Source: an uncultured Bacteroidales bacterium
GTDB taxonomy: Bacteria > Bacteroidota > Bacteroidia > Bacteroidales > UBA1715
DNA length: 48,158 bases
Reading direction: 5' to 3'
Assembly: GCA_964558075.1 (NCBI GenBank)
Contig: CAZLCY010000001.1
Span: 1-48,158 of the forward strand
The stretch's first letter is position 1, and each line of letters begins with the position of its first letter. The notes below the pieces were generated by a model. It ran no database searches. It was not told where the DNA came from and saw nothing but the letters and a program-made list of their open reading frames with translations. A program made the position numbers and the translations under genes. This document shows, piece after piece, positions 1-48,158 of this stretch.

Positions 1-12
1 GGGCCGGGATAG

Positions 13-300
13 TTACATTTGCATTGCCTGGATTTGCTCATCCTGACACTTGTTGCACTGTGTAGTTATAGCAGGGAGCCGTCCCCTGCTCATTATCACG
101 GAAGCTTCGCTTCCGCTACGGATATAGAGGCATCCGCACTCTATGTCCTGCAGGAAATCTACGAGCAGGGCATCTGTGCCGTGCCCGTTGAGGCGAATTT
201 CTGTTCTGCGGGTGTATTTACGACCCGCTATTTCTACTACGCACGGCGCATTATGCGCCTGTGCACGTAGGTGAGCGATGATTCTTGTTATTGTTTTCAT
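13..300 (-). CDS. hypothetical protein (95 aa) in the GC-richer small-gene operon
   Basis: From the ORF track. Its ATG overlaps the stop of the upstream 57-aa ORF (ATGA at 297-300), which suggests translational coupling. No motif recognised. Confidence 0.5.
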   Translation of the reverse strand: MKTITRIIAHLRAQAHNAPCVVEIAGRKYTRRTEIRLNGHGTDALLVDFLQDIECGCLYIRSGSEASVIMSRGRLPAITTQCNKCQDEQIQAMQM

Positions 301-470
301 GTGTTACCTCCTCTTGTTTCTTGCAGGGTTATTTTAACCCCGCACTTGTTCTGCATGCAGAGGATCTCCTTCAAGGACAATCCTTTGACAATGCAGGTCT
401 TTGTTTCCACTTGATAGAGTGGACGTTGAACGCCTGCTTCTATCAAGTGAAGATGAGTTGATTTTTTCAT
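297..470 (-). CDS. hypothetical small protein (57 aa)
   Basis: Hand-translated ORF below the track cutoff (MKKSTHLHLIEAGVQRPLYQ...). The ATG at 468-470 sits 18 nt after the ParB-like stop and is preceded by GGAAGGAG. Its stop overlaps the next ATG. Confidence 0.45.
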   Translation of the reverse strand: MKKSTHLHLIEAGVQRPLYQVETKTCIVKGLSLKEILCMQNKCGVKITLQETRGGNT

Positions 471-488
471 GATAATATCTCCTTCCCA

Positions 489-872
489 CTATCCTATATC
501 TATTCCGTATTTTTCTCTAATACATTCTGGTAAATAAGCAACTATTGCTTCCACCCCGCTAAGGGGATAAGCATGGTAATTGTCTTCTTGCTGTCTGTTA
601 TATCCACTTTCTTCTTTACTATCCTCATAGTCTATTCCGGCTTCTTCGAAAATGCCGGCAAGTGTGATTACCGGTATTTCCTTTCCTAATTCAACAGCCA
701 CTGCCCATCTATGAGCTCCGCTCATGAGATGAATGTTATCGAATAAAACTAATGGTGGACAATTTCTCCAGCCATTATTTTTAATTTCTTCTTTTAGGGA
801 TTGTAATTTATTTTTATCCCTAATCTCGTGTACTGGATAAAAATTCAATGGATTTTCATACTTTATTTCCAT
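489..872 (-). CDS. ParB-like N-terminal (ParBc/Srx fold) domain protein
   Basis: PPLVLFDNIHLMSGAHRWAVAVELGKEIPVITL matches the ParB-like nuclease domain signature (..G.HR..A...lG...iPv). At 127 aa it has no HTH or dimerisation part. RBS GGAGGAAGAGGAA lies upstream. Confidence 0.65.
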   Translation of the reverse strand: MEIKYENPLNFYPVHEIRDKNKLQSLKEEIKNNGWRNCPPLVLFDNIHLMSGAHRWAVAVELGKEIPVITLAGIFEEAGIDYEDSKEESGYNRQQEDNYHAYPLSGVEAIVAYLPECIREKYGIDIG

Positions 873-925
873 TTCCTCTTCCTCCGTTTTTTTTTGATTT
901 GGCCGTTTTCTTCCGACCTGCTCAT

Positions 926-934
926 ATTATAGCA
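926..934 (-). promoter_or_regulatory. extended -10 promoter (TGCTATAAT) for the ParB-like operon
   Basis: The minus strand reads ctgTGcTATAATatgag about 50 nt upstream of the ATG at 872. No good -35 box is present, but the TGn extension is. Confidence 0.4.
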
Positions 935-961
935 CAGTTTTTTCGCTCTATATTTCCAAAA

Positions 962-1073
962 TGTTACAATTTTGTTAATAATTTGTTAACATTTTATCGC
1001 ATGTGCTAACAAATGACCGCATTTGCTAACAAAACGTTCGCAGATGCTAACAGTTTCTTCGCATATACTAACA
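962..1073. repeat. iteron-like array: 3x TGTTA(C/A)N (11-bp period) facing 4x CGCAnnTGCTAACA (20-21-bp period)
   Basis: Plus-strand copies of tgttaca, tgttaat and tgttaac start at 962, 973 and 984. The 14-mers cgcatgtgctaaca, cgcatttgctaaca, cgcagatgctaaca and cgcatatactaaca lie at 998, 1018, 1039 and 1060. The core TGTTAGC is therefore in the opposite orientation in these four. Confidence 0.8.
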
Positions 1074-1312
1074 GTATTTCGCTGGTTGATGGCAGGTAAA
1101 ATAGTGTAAACGCCGATATTTACTGCATTTCCATCATAAGCATTTTATACTCATGTCGTATATAGCGGAGATGGCATGCTCCTCCTCCCTTTCTCCCTGC
1201 ATACCAAAACACAGTTATTATAAGGGTTCCGGCCCGTTTCAGCTCATTCCAGCCTATACCAGCCTGCATCAATTGCCCATCATTTTTTTATTTTTACCCG
1301 GATGTATTCGCC

Positions 1313-1342
1313 ATAATCATTGATGCGGTTGCCGGCTGTCAA
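1313..1342 (-). promoter_or_regulatory. possible minus-strand promoter (TTGACA-18-GATTAT)
   Basis: tgtcaa at 1337-1342 gives a perfect -35 box on the minus strand. ataatc at 1313-1318 gives GATTAT. This would start a leader running into the iterons. Confidence 0.3.
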
Positions 1343-1368
1343 TTAGTGTACGATGAACACGCATACAT

Positions 1369-1400
1369 GCGCGGGTACAATTCTATTGCGCGCGGGTACA
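1369..1400. repeat. direct repeat GCGCGGGTACA x2 (21-bp period)
   Basis: gcgcgggtaca occurs at 1369-1379 and 1390-1400, each time followed by (a)tTCTATT. It sits in the divergent intergenic region. Confidence 0.8.
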
Positions 1401-1545
1401 TCTATTTTTGTCGAGCCGATTTTTTTTTGACGGGGGTCTTTGGACGGGACGCGGACGTCCTATGGGGGGTGCACCCGCACGTTTGAGAACATGTAAAATT
1501 TTACACATTGAATTTTATTCAACAAAAAATAATCGCAGAAAACCC

Positions 1546-1574
1546 TTGACACACCATCAAAAATGTGATATAAT
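1546..1574 (+). promoter_or_regulatory. consensus promoter of the RNA operon
   Basis: TTGACA (1546-1551), a 17-nt spacer, then TATAAT (1569-1574). The first RNA gene starts 11 nt downstream. Confidence 0.75.
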
Positions 1575-1584
1575 AGATATATAA

Positions 1585-1667
1585 GGGGGCGAGATTGGCA
1601 CTCGACATCGACTAAAGCGTGTTTTAGCGCACTCGATTGGACGCGGGTTCGATTCCCGCCGCCTCCA
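1585..1667 (+). ncRNA. tmRNA-like tRNA-like domain only (mini-tmRNA, no tag ORF or pseudoknots)
   Basis: The acceptor stem is GGGGGCG/CGCCUCC with a G3:U70 pair and A73. The T arm is GCGGG-UUCGAUU-CCCGC. The 5' AGAUUGGCACUCGAC and 3' UUGGAC mirror the tmRNA D-loop analogue and GGAC linker. The interior is only about 31 nt (AUCGA/UCGAU helix plus a CUAAA-GCGUGU-UUUAG hairpin). No canonical anticodon arm can be drawn. Confidence 0.7.
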
Positions 1668-1675
1668 TTTATAAT

Positions 1676-1751
1676 CGCGGGGTAGTAGAGTGGTTTCATA
1701 CACAAGCCTCATAAGCTTGAAACAGGGGTTCAAATCCTCTCCCCGCTACCA
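1676..1751 (+). tRNA. tRNA with CAU anticodon (Met; could be initiator-like or Ile2 if lysidinylated)
   Basis: Cloverleaf drawn by hand. The acceptor is CGCGGGG/CCCCGCU with a C1xU72 mismatch. The anticodon stem is CAAGC/GCUUG with loop CUCAUAA. The T arm is AGGGG-UUCAAAU-CCUCU, followed by A73 and an encoded CCA. Confidence 0.9.
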
Positions 1752-1753
1752 AC

Positions 1754-1830
1754 AGTCCTGTGGTGTAATTTTGGTAACACATCAGCCTTTGAAGCTGAAT
1801 TTATAGGTTCGAGTCCTATCAGGACTGCCA
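1754..1830 (+). tRNA. tRNA-Gln (UUG)
   Basis: The acceptor is AGUCCUG/CAGGACU and the D stem is GUGU/ACAC. The anticodon stem is UCAGC/GCUGA with loop CUUUGAA. The T arm is AUAGG-UUCGAGU-CCUAU, followed by G73 and an encoded CCA. Confidence 0.9.
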
Positions 1831-1841
1831 ATTTTTTAATC

Positions 1842-1917
1842 GGCCCGTTGGCGAAATTTGGCAAACGCAACGAGTTTAAGCCTCGTACAGCTCCCGGTTC
1901 GAATCCGGGACGGGCTA
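1842..1917 (+). tRNA. tRNA-Leu (UAA) with a short (class I-like) variable region
   Basis: The acceptor is GGCCCGU/ACGGGCU. The anticodon stem is ACGAG/CUCGU with loop UUUAAGC (U33, anticodon UAA, G37). The T arm is CCCGG-UUCGAAU-CCGGG, followed by A73; CCA is not encoded. The variable region is only about 6 nt. Confidence 0.75.
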
Positions 1918-1954
1918 TTATAGATTTTCCTTTCAAGGAATAAATCGCATATAA

Positions 1955-1993
1955 AAGACCAATTTCTTTATGAGATCTGGTCTTATTTTTTTT
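1955..1993 (+). terminator. rho-independent terminator of the RNA operon
   Basis: Stem AAGACCA (1955-1961) pairs with TGGTCTT (1978-1984) and is followed by A plus T8 (1985-1993). Confidence 0.7.
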
Positions 1994-2110
1994 GTACCTA
2001 CGGCCCGTGCGATAAAATCGCTTGCCACTGTTATAGGCGTGTCCGTGCGTGCTCGCCCATGCTGTAATTTTAGAGCGAGGGCGAAAAAATGAGAGCGCGC
2101 ACACATGTAT

Positions 2111-2164
2111 ATACATACATACATACATACATAATATATTATTATTATTATTATTATTATTATT
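2111..2164. repeat. adjacent microsatellites (ATAC)5 and (ATT)9
   Basis: atac repeats five times over 2111-2130 (continuing as ata). att repeats nine times over 2138-2164. Both are non-coding and lie between the RNA operon and the plus-strand promoters. Confidence 0.95.
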
Positions 2165-5099: not shown

Positions 5100-5470
5100 T
5101 CCGGCTGTATTAATTTTACATTAGGACATATTCTACCTAAATTACATATTTTCCACGCGCACTCATTAAATATAATTTGCGTTCTTTCAAAAAAATCATC
5201 ATAATTTTTGTTGTACATAAAATCAAATCTGACATTAATTATATCTCCATTTATAATCTTATATTTACAATTATCAGGAACATATGCAAATTTTTCTTTA
5301 TTATTTAGCGAATACTTATGAAATGTTTCTTCAATACATTCACGAATATAATCAATAAATTTTTTAGTTATGCGCTCATTAATGCTGTGTACTTCTAATC
5401 GAGTTCTAACACTAACTATTTTATACCCATTCTTTTCATCGTTATTATAAACTAACTTTTTTGTTGACAT
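5084..5470 (-). CDS. hypothetical protein (128 aa)
   Basis: From the ORF track. It overlaps the downstream methylase start by 16 nt. No motif recognised. Confidence 0.55.
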   Translation of the reverse strand: MSTKKLVYNNDEKNGYKIVSVRTRLEVHSINERITKKFIDYIRECIEETFHKYSLNNKEKFAYVPDNCKYKIINGDIINVRFDFMYNKNYDDFFERTQIIFNECAWKICNLGRICPNVKLIQPECVIK

Positions 5471-6758: not shown

Positions 6759-7040
6759 TTACCACGGTTCAGCCTCAAATCCAGTTCTGTCTTCCCATGT
6801 ATCTCGAACTTCTTGTTCATAATCCGAAGTTGGCAGACCTAACATCATTTCATTTTCTTTTTCTGCGGAAGGTAATCCCTCTTTGAAAAGAATATATGAT
6901 GGTTGTGGAATTGGCCCTTTCTGCTTTCCGGTGTATCCACAACGGGGACATTTAAGGGGATTACGTCTATCCTCAACTTTTCTATTGTATTTTTGCATTA
7001 GTCCGTTACATTCTTTGCAACGATACACATAACAAGGCAT
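6759..7040 (-). CDS. FmdB-like zinc-ribbon protein
   Basis: MPCYVYRCKECNG...LKCPRCG follows the N-terminal Y-x-Y-x-C-x2-C ... C-P-x-C-G pattern of the FmdB family. Confidence 0.6.
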   Translation of the reverse strand: MPCYVYRCKECNGLMQKYNRKVEDRRNPLKCPRCGYTGKQKGPIPQPSYILFKEGLPSAEKENEMMLGLPTSDYEQEVRDTWEDRTGFEAEPW

Positions 7041-7043
7041 TCA

Positions 7044-7835
7044 TTAACATCTCCTTTCTGGTTTATAAATTATTCTTTCGAGTTCATATATTTTATCTTT
7101 TCTCATTTTAAGATACATAGGTTCTTCGGTGATGATTTTGGCTTCGTCATCTTTTAGTATTACAAAACCTTGAGTCCATATAGGATTGTTTACAGTATTC
7201 ATTTGAGAATATTCAACCTGTTCAGGATCAAGGCAACAGCCTCCATCTATTCCGATGTAAATAGCGGGATCGGTAGATTCCATCATTGCAAATGTGTTAT
7301 AAGAAAGGTAATGTTGGTGTCCAGCAATGATGTTTTGTCCATATCTTTTACACAAAGATTTGACTAAGCTACCGATCCGCTTTCTATAACCTCTCGGATG
7401 ACATATTCGCCATTTATTATTAATAATTATATAATCTCGTTCGGTAACTATTATTTTATCTTTGTATTTATCTTTAATAAGCAAGTTTAATACATCACCA
7501 AACAGTATGTGATAATCTGTTTTCCGGGAAATTCGTTTTTCGTGATTACCTATTACACAAATAATCTTATCAAAAACTTTACATATCTTGTCAAAGAATT
7601 TTCGTGCAACATCTTGTTCTATCTTCCACGAAGCATTAGTTTGCTTACGTACAAAAGATGAGAATGAATCCATATTTAACGTGTCGCCATTGAGCACGAG
7701 GGTTTTAATCCCCGTGCTTTTAGCCATGTCAATAACCATTTTCAGCATCTTTTCGCTGTGTTGTGGAATGTGCCAATCACCAGTGATTATTGCATCTCCC
7801 GCGTATTGGATTTCTCCGTTGTTGTTTTTAATCAA
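7044..7835 (-). CDS. calcineurin-like metallophosphoesterase
   Basis: The ordered motifs GDWHIP (DxH), LNGDTLN (GDxxD), GNHE and GHQH are all present. Confidence 0.85.
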   Translation of the reverse strand: MIKNNNGEIQYAGDAIITGDWHIPQHSEKMLKMVIDMAKSTGIKTLVLNGDTLNMDSFSSFVRKQTNASWKIEQDVARKFFDKICKVFDKIICVIGNHEKRISRKTDYHILFGDVLNLLIKDKYKDKIIVTERDYIIINNKWRICHPRGYRKRIGSLVKSLCKRYGQNIIAGHQHYLSYNTFAMMESTDPAIYIGIDGGCCLDPEQVEYSQMNTVNNPIWTQGFVILKDDEAKIITEEPMYLKMRKDKIYELERIIYKPERRC

Positions 7836-44992: not shown

Positions 44993-45493
44993 TTAAAACA
45001 ACGAATCATATTTAACGTCAAATCTACTGATTGAATTATTTTTCATTGTAGGCATTTTAATTCCTGTGGTTGTGTAATGATTGATTTTTTTCCCTGAAAA
45101 AATTAATTGAAGGGAATTTATGTTTCTTGCATTGTCGATGACAACACGTTTTAATTTATGCAAAGAATAAAAATCATCAAATATGGCATACAATTCATCG
45201 CGGGAAATATCCCATAAAAAACCTTGAAAGTTAATTCCAAAGTTTAATGTATTTGTAGTAACAAAAGTTCTTTTTGTCAATGGGAATAGATTCAAAAAGA
45301 TTAATTCATTAGATAATTCTTGTTTATTGAACATTTCCTTGAATTGTTCGGGTTTTCTTATTCTTTTTCCATAAATTCTGAAATACGCTTTAATTTCATC
45401 AATTTTTTTCACATAAATTCCTTCTTCTAATATAATTTTTGAAGCTTTCTGTACCATTTTCTTGCATCCAAGTAACGAATGGTATCCAGTCAT
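44993..45493 (-). CDS. hypothetical protein (166 aa or shorter)
   Basis: From the ORF track. It overlaps the upstream amidoligase-like ORF by 95 nt. The internal ATG at 45457 would reduce the overlap. Confidence 0.45.
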   Translation of the reverse strand: MTGYHSLLGCKKMVQKASKIILEEGIYVKKIDEIKAYFRIYGKRIRKPEQFKEMFNKQELSNELIFLNLFPLTKRTFVTTNTLNFGINFQGFLWDISRDELYAIFDDFYSLHKLKRVVIDNARNINSLQLIFSGKKINHYTTTGIKMPTMKNNSISRFDVKYDSLF

Positions 45494-46703
45494 ATTTCAA
45501 GTTTGAACTTTCGAATTCAAACAGGTTAAAATATTCGAAAATCATATGTATTAGTTCGATTGTTGCAAGAAAAGTTTCCGCATTCAGGGTACCTCTAAAG
45601 TACCTAAATTCATATGTTTGACTTCGCGATAGATTAATACAGTTATGATGATTGTACACGTTTTCAAACTGCAAGAAGAATTCATCGTGAACCTCATCGG
45701 CAGTTTTTTTGCCGTCAACATATTTTATAATGTCATCATAAGATTCGACCGGCTCACACGTGGAAGTGTTTATAAATTTTCTGTTATATGTAGATTCTTT
45801 GCGCCGGCAAAAATTTCGAATTTCATCGTTGTTATCTGCGAAAAATTTGAGCACATGTGGCATTAACCTGTTTGTGCGGTTATTTTTAGATATATGTATA
45901 TGCAAGCCACAGGTTAACGTATTATCGCTCCTGTACCCTACCCGTATTAATTTTTCAAACCAGAAACGAAAGTTATGCTTTTTCAATGTATGGAAACAGC
46001 ATGGTTTTGAAACTATCTCAAAACCGTTGTCAAGAGATGAATCCCATGACATGCCCGCAACGATATTACTTGCATAATTCATTATCAGCTTTGCGGCGTC
46101 ATTGTGCCGTGTACCAGTTTGTGAAGCTCTATCAGCTTCAATTTCCAGTTCGAAACCGATAAGAGTTTTTTCGTTCGATCGCGTGCATTTTTCGCAACGT
46201 GTCCACTTGAACCGATCTTTAGGAATTTGATGATAATCATGTATTGCATTAATTGTATTATATCCGCACGGACATTCACCTTCCGTACGATAATGACCAC
46301 AACCGGGACATTTAGTTGCGTTTAGGTCATCTATACAATTATAGCATATAGTTTCAATTTCCAAATCATGATACATAAAAAACGTATAATAACTGTGATG
46401 ATAATTATCACAGTTTGCACAACACACGTAATTCTCAAAACATGATTTGCAAACATGAACTTCCACTTCCGCAATACATTCTATTACAATATAATTATAC
46501 TCGTAATTGTCTTTGCGTATTAAACCAGTGCAATCATTGCACCGTGTATAACATCGCGGACAATACTCTGTAGCGGGAATTATCCTTTTACAAAGCGGGC
46601 AGTTTTTATATTCTTCATAAAATGCCCATTGTATTGTTGATGGCATTGTATTCATGCCTATTTTTATATTTAAATAAAAATTCATTATTATCTTCTTTCC
46701 CAT
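45399..46703 (-). CDS. amidoligase-like (glutamine synthetase/GCS2-fold, Amidoligase_2-type) protein with N-terminal multi-CxxC zinc-ribbon array
   Basis: The C-terminal half has IGFELEIE, WDSSLDNGFEIVSKP, LTCGLHIHIS and TYEFRYFRGTLN in the order typical of this family. The N-terminal roughly 150 aa carry at least 8 CxxC/CxC pairs. The start could be the ATG at 46685. Confidence 0.6.
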   Translation of the reverse strand: MGKKIIMNFYLNIKIGMNTMPSTIQWAFYEEYKNCPLCKRIIPATEYCPRCYTRCNDCTGLIRKDNYEYNYIVIECIAEVEVHVCKSCFENYVCCANCDNYHHSYYTFFMYHDLEIETICYNCIDDLNATKCPGCGHYRTEGECPCGYNTINAIHDYHQIPKDRFKWTRCEKCTRSNEKTLIGFELEIEADRASQTGTRHNDAAKLIMNYASNIVAGMSWDSSLDNGFEIVSKPCCFHTLKKHNFRFWFEKLIRVGYRSDNTLTCGLHIHISKNNRTNRLMPHVLKFFADNNDEIRNFCRRKESTYNRKFINTSTCEPVESYDDIIKYVDGKKTADEVHDEFFLQFENVYNHHNCINLSRSQTYEFRYFRGTLNAETFLATIELIHMIFEYFNLFEFESSNLKYDWIPFVTWMQENGTESFKNYIRRRNLCEKN

Positions 46704-46825
46704 ATTTCATCAATTATTTCCGCATCGCTGTTTGATGCTGAATTGTCATTGTGAAGCATCGAATTTAATGCTTCGTTTATAATTACACTAACAGTAATTA
46801 TGATTATGCCAATTAGTGTATTCAT
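46688..46825 (-). CDS. small membrane protein (45 aa)
   Basis: Hand-translated as MNTLIGIIIITVSVIINEALNS... . It has one N-terminal TM helix and an acidic tail. RBS AAGGATGG lies upstream. Confidence 0.45.
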   Translation of the reverse strand: MNTLIGIIIITVSVIINEALNSMLHNDNSASNSDAEIIDEIWERR

Positions 46826-46865
46826 TCTTCCATCCTTCTTTTAGTTAATTTGCCTTTCATATTGC

Positions 46866-46906
46866 AAAAAAAAGGATGAATAATCCCCATAAGAGGATTA
46901 TCCACC
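46866..46906 (-). terminator. rho-independent terminator
   Basis: The minus strand forms an imperfect hairpin, GGUGGAUAAUCC...GGAUUAUUCAUCC, directly followed by U8 (A8 at 46866-46873 on the plus strand). Confidence 0.6.
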
Positions 46907-46915
46907 CGAGTATTT

Positions 46916-46999
46916 TTAGCATGCTATCACGGCCATAAAAATGACCATAATAATCCACGCTATCATGGCAATTTCTTGCCATGTTAATTCAATTTTCAT
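46916..46999 (-). CDS. 27-aa hydrophobic peptide
   Basis: Hand-translated as MKIELTWQEIAMIAWIIMVIFMAVIAC. RBS AGGAG lies 8 nt upstream. It follows the structured leader at 47029-47108. Confidence 0.45.
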   Translation of the reverse strand: MKIELTWQEIAMIAWIIMVIFMAVIAC

Positions 47000-47028
47000 A
47001 TTTCATACTCCTTTTTTTTAAATACAAA

Positions 47029-47052
47029 TTACCCGGATTTGTCGACTCCGGG
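47029..47052. repeat. conserved 24-nt hairpin repeat, copy 1 (minus strand: CCCGGA-GUCGACAAA-UCCGGG-UAA)
   Basis: ttacccggatttgtcgactccggg is identical to 47772-47795. A truncated copy lies at 48148-48158 and a 10-nt remnant at 1294-1303. Confidence 0.9.
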
Positions 47053-47108
47053 CGTGCCGGATAGAGGGAAGCAAGCCCGGCACCTGAAATAGGTAAGGTC
47101 TTACTTCC
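47053..47108 (-). ncRNA. unclassified pseudoknotted RNA element
   Basis: The minus strand has GGAAG (47108-47104) complementary to CUUCC (47071-47067). That CUUCC lies in the loop of a 7-bp hairpin, GUGCCGG (47083-47077) paired with CCGGCAC (47060-47054). A small GUAA-GACC-UUAC hairpin lies between them. Together these give an H-type pseudoknot topology. Confidence 0.4.
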
Positions 47109-47156
47109 AAAAAATAAAGCCATCATATATCCTCCAAACAGATATACAATGGCTTT
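47109..47156 (-). terminator. rho-independent terminator after the 169-aa gene
   Basis: On the minus strand AAAGCCAU pairs with AUGGCUUU, with an inner AUAUC/GAUAU helix, followed by AUUUUUU. Confidence 0.6.
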
Positions 47157-47159
47157 ATT

Positions 47160-47669
47160 TTATATAAATTCCCTTTGTATATATTCTTCATAGGCCGTTT
47201 TACGGCCTATGATGGCTATTGTCGTTGTGGTTGTAGTGCTATTCATATGCACTACTTTTTTATTTTTACCTTCGGGGAGGCAAACTATGCCTTTCCCGTC
47301 GAAATAATACACATTACAGGGAGCGACATCGTAATGTGCAATTTTACGATGCTCTCCCCCCCCTGTTGTGTATTCTATGACTTCTGAAGGCTCTATGTCC
47401 TCCAGAAGGACCCTTGATTTTTTTCCCTTTGGAACTATAAAAGTTCCGTAGGGTTCTTTTCTTATTTCCCATCCGGGAATCAACCATTCAGGGGAATGGT
47501 TTAATATGAAACCGGGTTTTATTTCCCCGGTTTTAGTATTAATTGCATCTCCCCATTCATGGGGGTTGGTGCAATTAAAAAATGGATTTATACTCTTATG
47601 ATAATGCAGACCTGCCATAGTCTGCATTTTACGGAGCTGTTTAAGCTCCTTTTTATTTAGTTTTTTCAT
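47160..47669 (-). CDS. hypothetical protein (169 aa)
   Basis: I set the start at the ATG at 47669 (MKKLNKKELKQ), after AAAGAGGAAG. The track's 30-codon N-terminal extension runs through the hammerhead sequence. Confidence 0.55.
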   Translation of the reverse strand: MKKLNKKELKQLRKMQTMAGLHYHKSINPFFNCTNPHEWGDAINTKTGEIKPGFILNHSPEWLIPGWEIRKEPYGTFIVPKGKKSRVLLEDIEPSEVIEYTTGGGEHRKIAHYDVAPCNVYYFDGKGIVCLPEGKNKKVVHMNSTTTTTTIAIIGRKTAYEEYIQREFI

Positions 47670-47714
47670 TTTTTCTTCCTCTTTCTCCCCTTTTCGCCGG
47701 AGCGCGGTTGATTT

Positions 47715-47771
47715 CCGTTTCGCTCCCCGCTGGTTGCGGAGGCTCATCAGCCCTGTCAATTCAGGGGACGG
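47715..47771 (-). ncRNA. type III hammerhead self-cleaving ribozyme
   Basis: The minus strand reads CCGU-C/CCCUG-AAUUGA-CAGGG-CUGAUGA-GCCUCCGC-AACCA-GCGGGGAGC-GAAA-CGG. All invariant core residues are present: CUGAUGA, GAA, the A15.1:U16.1 pair and the G10.1:C11.1 pair. The GUC cleavage triplet places the cut between 47767 and 47766. Confidence 0.85.
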
Positions 47772-47795
47772 TTACCCGGATTTGTCGACTCCGGG
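47772..47795. repeat. conserved 24-nt hairpin repeat, copy 2
   Basis: It is identical to 47029-47052 and lies immediately 5' (on the minus strand) of hammerhead stem III. Confidence 0.9.
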
Positions 47796-47817
47796 TGGGC
47801 CGTGGGAAGGGAGTGAA

Positions 47818-48075
47818 TTACTCTTCACTCCCCTCCCAAGTTACTCTCATAATAAATTCGAAATCTTCGAATTCATAGCTGGCATACCAGGGCAGGGCTT
47901 CGAACCCATATTTATCCTGGTATTTAAACATGACAAGGCACTGTTCCATTGACAGTGCCTTAATGAGAGCCAACCCGGCCTCCGCCGGGCTGATGCCGTT
48001 ATCATATTCCAGCGCATCCTGAAGCGATATAGTATCCAAATTGCCAATTTGGATATTTTTTACTTCCGTATTCAT
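47818..48075 (-). CDS. hypothetical protein (85 aa) flanked by two ribozymes
   Basis: From the ORF track, with RBS AGGAGG 7 nt upstream. Its last codons form the 5' arm of a 9-bp hairpin (GGGAGUGAA/UUCACUCCC). Confidence 0.6.
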   Translation of the reverse strand: MNTEVKNIQIGNLDTISLQDALEYDNGISPAEAGLALIKALSMEQCLVMFKYQDKYGFEALPWYASYEFEDFEFIMRVTWEGSEE

Positions 48076-48103
48076 TTTCTTCCTCCTAAATTTTTACTCC
48101 CAT

Positions 48104-48150
48104 CCCCCTTTAACACGGGCTTTGGACCGTCCTCGGCGGGGTTAAAGTTA
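48104..48150 (-). ncRNA. twister-like self-cleaving ribozyme (core)
   Basis: The minus strand reads UAA-CUUUAAC-CCCGCCGAGG-ACGG-UCCAAAGC-CCGU-GUUAAAG-GGGG. P2 is CUUUAAC/GUUAAAG and P4 is ACGG/CCGU with an 8-nt loop, UCCAAAGC. The loop GC can pair with the upstream GCC, and the loop CC with the 3' G-run. This is the twister double-pseudoknot layout. Confidence 0.6.
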
Positions 48151-48158
48151 CCCGGATT
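48148..48158. repeat. conserved hairpin repeat, copy 3 (truncated at the window end)
   Basis: ttacccggatt matches the first 11 nt of the repeat. Joined to window position 1 (gggccgggatag), it gives a shorter CCCGG-CCCAAU-CCGGG hairpin on the minus strand. Confidence 0.7.

Follow-up and report, generated by a model that had tools for sequence, protein, structure and literature searches.

A type-P1 twister ribozyme predicted beside a probable hammerhead in the early operon of a tailed phage

The phage locus

The window, by which we mean the whole stretch of 48,158 nucleotides analysed here, carries the portal, terminase, DNA polymerase, primase and SNF2 helicase genes of a tailed phage, has a GC content of 35% and bears almost all of its genes on the minus strand. 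Read along that strand and across the two window ends, a promoter region (~1340-930) is followed by genes for proteins of 127, 57 and 95 amino acids, a hairpin read as a P0 stem together with a twister element, a gene for 85 amino acids, a further hairpin with a hammerhead, a gene for 169 amino acids and a 21-bp terminator hairpin with a U tract (Table 1). The twister element lies on the gene strand within a 96-nt intergenic gap, and the AGGAGG ribosome-binding site of the 85-aa gene is located at 48087-48082, 8 nt past its end. The minus strand at the window end, which an earlier note on this DNA had read in exact agreement with the window sequence, runs AAUCCGGG UAA CUU UAA CCCC GCC GAGG ACGG UCCAAAGC CCGU GUUAAA GGGG GAUGG GAGU AAAAAUUU AGGAGG AAGAAA AUG.

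Table 1. Positions of the twister parts and of the neighbouring features in the window (T1 and T2, pseudoknots)
Feature	Position	Strand	Basis
Type-P1 twister core, predicted: P1-P2-P4 with pseudoknots T1 and T2, no P3 or P5	48096..48148	-	RF03160, R1, alignment A4
P1 5′ strand ACUU, pairing with GAGU 48099-48096 (A-U, C-G, U-A, U.G)	48145..48148	-	Both models, fold
Predicted scissile bond U48144/A48143	48143..48144	-	UAA alignment in both models
Cleavage-site UAA	48144-48142	-	Both models
P2 5′ strand CCCC, pairing with GGGG 48108-48105	48138..48141	-	Both models, A4 covariation
GCC, 5′ strand of the internal loop; G48137-C48136 with G48120-C48119 can form T2	48135..48137	-	Invariant, 24 of 24 twisters
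Linker GAGG, 4 nt, at the position of the optional P3	48131..48134	-	Same junction in relatives
P4, ACG/CGU plus a possible G48127-C48118 pair; loop UCCAAAGC (P4 loop as an element: GUCCAAAGCC)	48115..48130	-	Both models
Loop side of T1, CCA, with UGG 48102-48100	48123..48125	-	Covariation of the variable pair
Internal loop 3′ strand GUUAAA	48109..48114	-	One-nt insertion in both models
GAUGG between P2 and P1, holding the 3′ side of T1	48100..48104	-	Relatives, covariation
Hairpin 3′ arm CCGGG, read as optional P0	48151..48155	-	Sequence, fold
Putative P0 hairpin 5′ arm CCCGG, 4 nt past the stop codon of the 95-aa gene	4..8	-	Sequence, fold
95-aa gene upstream of the twister	13..300	-	ORF
85-aa ORF between the two ribozymes	47818..48075	-	ORF
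Hairpin CCCGGAGUCGACAAAUCCGGG directly 5′ of the hammerhead, sharing UCCGGGUAAC with the twister hairpin	47775..47795	-	Sequence repeat
Probable type III hammerhead, predicted cut 3′ of C47767 (GUC 47769-47767)	47712..47774	-	RF00008

Upstream of the first early gene, at ~960-1110 on the minus strand, five or more spaced copies of GTTAGCA/GTTAACA resemble an array of operators for a regulator, and a scan of the minus strand over the upstream genes (window 1..1400) found no terminator-like site. At the other end of the operon, the intergenic region 46985-47160 (minus strand) is very strongly structured (−59.3 kcal/mol, z-score −5.7), containing in order a 21-bp perfect hairpin with a U tract, likely the terminator of the early operon, a second hairpin and an orphan copy of the hairpin that precedes the hammerhead; another terminator-like hairpin lies at 46907..46874. 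Elsewhere in the window, an 86-nt stretch on the plus strand (1585-1670) matched only the ends of the tmRNA model, corresponding to its tRNA-like domain, with 316 positions skipped (51.9 bits), directly upstream of the phage tRNA genes for Met, Gln and Leu (1676-1917), and ARAGORN made no call on it.

The genes around the element are orphans. A blastn search of 46800-48158 against phage records gave no match, the 85-aa protein had no match in the viral contigs and retrieved only itself from a set of 5.8 billion proteins, the 169-aa protein had no match by tblastn against phages, and the sole match of the 95-aa protein was its own copy on a Logan contig, which is a piece of the window at 100% identity. 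A tblastn search of all window ORFs against the fetched twister loci returned just two unrelated distant matches. The 434-aa protein encoded at 45399-46703 (minus strand), whose N-terminal part is rich in cysteine and which contains an Amidoligase_2 domain (PF12224), had distant matches only, its distant relatives in mycobacteriophages being annotated as glutamine amidotransferase domain proteins.

Match to the twister family

To collect relatives, we used a degenerate pattern of the conserved 3′ half of the twister, which yielded 15 stretches from viral, 19 from metagenomic and 19 from genomic sequences that, parsed by eye and by script, were mostly type-P1 twisters just before a ribosome-binding site. 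A first MAFFT alignment of the trimmed cores (A1) misplaced three sequences with an extra loop nucleotide and was replaced by the model-based alignments A3 and A4.

The Rfam twister-P1 model RF03160, whose family the earlier note had proposed to search, aligned end to end (model positions 1-68) with minus-strand positions 48148..48096 at 46.0 bits, corresponding to an E-value of 6e-9 in a scan of 759 nt and of 3.9e-7 when the whole window is searched with all 4227 Rfam families. This score is below the gathering score of 67.2, and at curated thresholds Rfam reports three tRNAs and a short tmRNA-like match elsewhere in the window and nothing else. However, all ten distinct P3-less twisters that we scanned with RF03160 scored 45-62 bits, each under 67.2, and the gathering score was reached in two of the 15 viral loci (L004 and L011), both of which carry P3. 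The sub-threshold score of the window element is thus best explained by the deletion of P3, a property of the subgroup and no evidence against the element.

We then used R1, a covariance model built from seven P3-less twisters on unrelated contigs with the window excluded from the build. In the 48-kb window it gave a single match, 48151..48093 on the minus strand, which was full length with 62 bits and an E-value of ~6e-15, with one U inserted in the 3′ strand of the loop. The window scored highest with R1 among the sequences outside the training set, at 62 bits versus 70-81 bits for the training sequences. The core lies entirely within the window, and the circular join is not required for scoring. 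Taken together, the matches to both models bear out the call of a twister in this region (48104-48158 in the earlier note), and as judged from sequence the element is a genuine-looking, conventional type-P1 twister, a further member of a well-known family.

Architecture of the element

The segment GGG-UAA-CUU-UAA-CCCC contains two UAA triplets, and the choice between them sets the register of the whole fold. The earlier note took the first (48150-48148) as the cleavage site, but both covariance models align the second to the cleavage-site UAA, and the resulting standard type-P1 register was picked by RF03160, by R1 and by the minimum-free-energy fold, whose P1, P2 and P4 arose without constraints. 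In this register P1 is the 4-bp helix ACUU/GAGU, and not absent or replaced by a capped hairpin with a moved chain break, the GC-rich hairpin being a separate element 5′ of P1. P2 is CCCC/GGGG in place of the CUUUAAC/GUUAAAG helix of the note. Given that the P1 strands are outermost and P4 is capped by a loop, the termini lie in P1, rather than in P3 or P5 or in a new permutation. The stems P1, P2 and P4, which are essential in twisters where P0, P3 and P5 are optional (PMC5408937), are all present in the right order.

The conserved nucleotides of the family, UAA, GCC, GGUCC-N-AAGCCCG, U..AAA and GA-N-GG, are all found in the window, the sole deviation being one nucleotide inserted in the 3′ strand of L1. 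This strand has the consensus GUAAA or AUAAA and is one nucleotide longer in the window, where GUUAAA can be read either as GU-U-AAA or as GUUAA with an extra A. Loops longer by one nucleotide likewise occur in L008, L019 and L024. Either reading has precedents: L024 carries its insertion at this very position, L013 has AUUAA, and L008 and L019 contain an additional A. The A-rich loop on the 3′ side, which had been thought to be missing, is thus there, with one extra nucleotide.

Several parts of the element were recognised correctly from the start, namely the GCC of the 5′ internal loop and P4 with its UCCAAAGC loop. For the T2 pairing named in the note, G48137-C48136 can pair with G48120-C48119, at positions that the search pattern fixed and that do not vary in the alignment. 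T1 had been assigned to the G-run at 48107-48104, a run made up of the P2 3′ strand and the first G of GAUGG, but covariation instead joins the loop CCA to the UGG within GAUGG, through the pairs C48125-G48100, C48124-G48101 and A48123-U48102. The junction GCC-GAGG-ACGG is identical in the P3-less twisters L001, L017, L018 and L019, and a search for the exact junction, GCCGAGGACGGTCCNAAGCCCGTGT, had L001 as its single match in the viral contigs and no match in the genomes.

Covariation and alternative readings

Covariation was assessed on A4, a model-based alignment of 24 distinct twisters, which is fitted to the model and contains family members rather than orthologues. No relatives of the phage were found in any collection searched, so that there is no locus-specific conservation and the covariation is family-wide. 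The canonical structure including both pseudoknots was paired in 95.8% of the alignment cells versus 72.3% in shuffles, with a covariation score of 0.606 versus 0.163, and pairing fell to 29-47% when the 3′ partners were slid by one to three columns. Changes on both sides were observed for all four P1 and P2 pairs, for the outer P4 pair and for the variable T1 pair. Within P1 the three inner pairs covary, P2 is paired in 97.9% of the cells, and the outer P4 pair occurs as A-U in 16, C-G in seven and G-C in one of the sequences. The search patterns fixed the loop, part of P4 and the T2 positions, and the invariance of T2 in 24 of 24 twisters is pinned in this way.

With a pattern that left both positions of the variable T1 pair free, we counted 26 C:G, five A:U, two U:A, one G:U and one A:C, the last two in sequences without a twister parse, having no recognisable UAA and P2 upstream. 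The window pair is A:U. The window forms 16 of the 16 tested pairs and keeps the positions that are invariant across the 24 twisters, and its one departure from the commonest sequence, a C-to-A change in the loop, is compensated by a G-to-U change in GAUGG. Its P1 5′ strand is also found, as AACUU, in L005, where the partner is AAGUU.

These observations bear on whether the element still cleaves. If the extra loop U or the short 4-bp P1 with its G.U pair abolished cleavage, the element would be a decayed or inactive relic that serves as a structured 5′ UTR only, a reading that draws on the insertion relative to the consensus loop, on the R1 score below those of the training sequences and on the many computationally predicted ribozymes that fail cleavage tests (PMC8782182). 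We consider this unlikely, given that the invariant positions and all tested pairs are intact and the T1 pair is compensated, that independent twisters have loops of equal length, that P1 is dispensable for cleavage in vitro (PMC5408937), and that an element of 54% GC has stayed intact in a genome of 35% GC.

The same data weigh on the rearranged twister that the earlier note had put forward, with a cut between U48150 and A48149, a 7-bp P2, no A-rich loop, T1 to the G-run and a capped hairpin in place of P1. Its 7-bp helix can be drawn, the extra U48112 making the complementarity perfect, and the hairpin does sit before the first UAA. However, both covariance models and the minimum-free-energy fold chose the other register, and the 7-bp helix with P4 reaches −7.9 kcal/mol versus −14.1 kcal/mol for the canonical nested fold, which makes it ~6 kcal/mol weaker. 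On A4 the helix is 70.5% paired, largely through conserved U and A residues that face each other by chance, with 7 to 14 sequences unpaired at each of four of its seven pairs and no consistent covariation over the 24 twisters, and one of its A-U pairs is unique to the window because it needs the extra U of the window. The helix would moreover bury the scissile bond. Covariation, which the note had named as a check, upholds the canonical P2, the outer P4 pair and T1 to GAUGG, but neither the 7-bp P2 nor T1 to the G-run, and a published search devoted to additional twister permutations yielded no promising candidates (PMC10085705). We regard the rearranged architecture as highly improbable, CUUUAAC/GUUAAAG being a coincidental alternative pairing that at most competes with the active fold.

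Chance resemblance in an intergenic spacer without RNA function, for which the unremarkable thermodynamic z-score of the 69-nt stretch (+0.6) and the Rfam score under the gathering threshold could be cited, is effectively refuted because of the RF03160 and R1 E-values, the R1 match being the single one in 48 kb, and the element is on the correct strand and immediately precedes a ribosome-binding site, an arrangement shared by most related loci.

The neighbouring hammerhead

One short gene downstream, where the earlier note had placed a hammerhead, we found a match to RF00008 (Hammerhead_3) at 47774..47712 with 25.5 bits and an E-value of 0.005 in the 759-nt scan, the gathering score being 48.5. 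The core motifs CUGAUGA, GAAA and GUC are intact and stems I and II are capped, with a stem III of only 4 bp, and on its sequence the element is a probable type III hammerhead. The two ribozymes are separated by ~375 nt. Clustering of twisters and hammerheads in bacteria, mentioned in the note, is indeed published (PMC10085705, PMC6765202).

The loci of the closest twister relatives contained no hammerhead at E-values up to 0.01. L011 (two twisters and a twister-sister), L025, L040, L043 and L001/L004 likewise carry more than one ribozyme. In the phage-like contigs L011, L025 and L040 the ribozymes are spaced by a few hundred to a few thousand nucleotides: those of L011 lie at 2503-2549, 2809-2877 and 5163-5234, and twister pairs are located at 1186-1250 and 1937-2001 in L025 and at 143-201 and 607-665 in L040. 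The second twister of L025 has a doubly compensated T1 (loop UCUC, GAGAG). In L027, where tRNAs lie next to the twister, 6924-7112 gave a group I intron match below threshold (42.8 bits, gathering score 50).

The upstream hairpin and its copies

The hairpin before the twister, CCCGG-CCCAAU-CCGGG, is followed by UA and then P1; it crosses the window ends and forms only with the ends joined. Among 26 twisters, 16 had a hairpin of −8 kcal/mol or below in the 36 nt upstream, a level reached by 16% of windows drawn at random from those loci (Mann-Whitney p ~5e-7, the sequences not all being independent). The position of these hairpins recurs, and their sequence is not conserved between loci. In the hatchet ribozyme, P0 is a hairpin without conservation that precedes the cleavage site by a few nucleotides and is dispensable for function (PMC4604424). 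By this comparison, and with P0 listed as an optional twister stem (PMC5408937), we read the hairpin 5′ of P1 as a putative optional P0 stem, not a capped P1, and a plausible role would be to leave a structured 3′ end on the upstream cleavage product.

A 21-nt hairpin, CCCGGAGUCGACAAAUCCGGG, is present in two exact copies on the minus strand, at 47032-47052 and at 47775-47795, whereas 100 shuffles of the window contained no copy. A partial copy precedes the twister (48147-48156, minus strand), with the 3′ arm and UAAC in common. The second exact copy adjoins the hammerhead, and the first is an orphan one intergenic region further on, where no ribozyme follows and no Rfam ribozyme family matched nearby at E-values up to 10. 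The hairpin sequence was not found in the viral contigs.

The window ends share no terminal repeat, and the join between them is putative. A Logan contig (L054, run SRR11308339), the only other one that carries the gene upstream of the twister, matches window 2162..1 at 100% identity, with its end at the same base. The join resembles the hammerhead-side hairpin minus 14 central nucleotides (CGGCCC/ACCCGGAGUCGACA/AAUCCGGGUAAC), and a short stretch may have been lost at an assembly break between the window ends. The ends could be either an assembly break shared by both data sets in a repeat or real genome termini, and this uncertainty leaves the ribozyme core unaffected.

The copies might be taken for a portable hairpin module (…UCCGGG-UAA…), which would act through stabilised 3′ ends or as a protein-recognition site, the orphan copy then standing for a lost ribozyme or for an undescribed cleaving element. 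We hold this reading, along with its bolder variant of a fragment circularised by RtcB, to be a long shot. If true, one hairpin would stand ahead of two unrelated ribozyme classes and once alone, marking the processing points of the early transcript. Under the bolder variant, 5′-OH and 2′,3′-cyclic-phosphate ends on a ~377-nt fragment would suit RtcB and could yield a circular, stable mRNA for the 85-aa protein.

Discussion

Weighing these results, we consider it very probable that 48096..48148 on the minus strand encodes a type-P1 self-cleaving twister of P1, P2 and P4 with pseudoknots T1 and T2, without P3 and with an optional P0, located in an early polycistronic mRNA of a ~48-kb tailed phage of 35% GC. 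By analogy with the family, the P4 loop (L4) would pair with GCC (T2) and with GAUGG (T1) as the RNA folds, and the 2′-OH of U48144 would attack the adjacent phosphate, so that the transcript would be cut between U48144 and A48143, the chemistry assigned to this bond being that of the established twister mechanism (PMC5408937). The upstream product would end after the 95-aa gene with the P0 hairpin and UAACUUU, bearing a 2′,3′-cyclic phosphate, and the downstream product would begin with a 5′-OH and a compact 48-nt ribozyme body that stops 8 nt short of the 85-aa gene's ribosome-binding site. Cuts by both the twister and the hammerhead would excise a ~377-nt fragment (48143..47767) with the single 85-aa gene. 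The purpose may be to make neighbouring early genes independent of each other in stability and translation, a role that has been suggested in the literature, where processing of polycistronic transcripts is proposed for such ribozymes (PMC6765202).

Beyond its own locus, the element can be set beside known systems. It has the type-P1 order of P1, UAA, P2, GCC, linker, P4 with its UCC-N-AAGC loop, A-rich loop, P2, GA-N-GG and P1, and it resembles type-P1 twisters in its two predicted pseudoknots and in having its termini in P1. The type-P1 twister ribozyme reportedly goes back to Roth et al. 2014, and its nearest well-studied example to that of the window is Osa-1-4 of Oryza sativa, which has no P3. 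By contrast with the usual type-P1 twister, the variable T1 pair of the window is A:U where C:G is commonest, the 3′ loop strand is one nucleotide longer and P2 consists entirely of C-G pairs. The closest natural sequences are the phage and metagenome twisters L001, L017, L018 and L019.

The GC-rich hairpin just 5′ of P1 is reminiscent of P0 accessory hairpins, but unlike known P0 stems, one hairpin sequence with UCCGGGUAAC precedes both the twister and the hammerhead here, and a third time no ribozyme. In bacteria, twisters cluster with hammerheads, and both with phage genes (PMC10085705, PMC6765202, PMC8782182), and the two self-cleaving classes in one phage operon fit this pattern. The strongest published association is with Mu-like phage genes, whereas the flanking genes of the window are orphans.

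What is known of the twister family is unchanged by this member, and the pairing of ribozymes in phages is already published. The locus adds a phage-borne twister paired with a hammerhead round one small gene, and its compact operon, comprising a promoter region, three genes, the twister, a gene, the hammerhead, a gene and a strong terminator, would be a convenient test system. For the family, the RF03160 gathering threshold misses the entire P3-less subgroup tested (45-62 bits versus 67.2), and such twisters in phage genomes are therefore under-counted in routine annotation.
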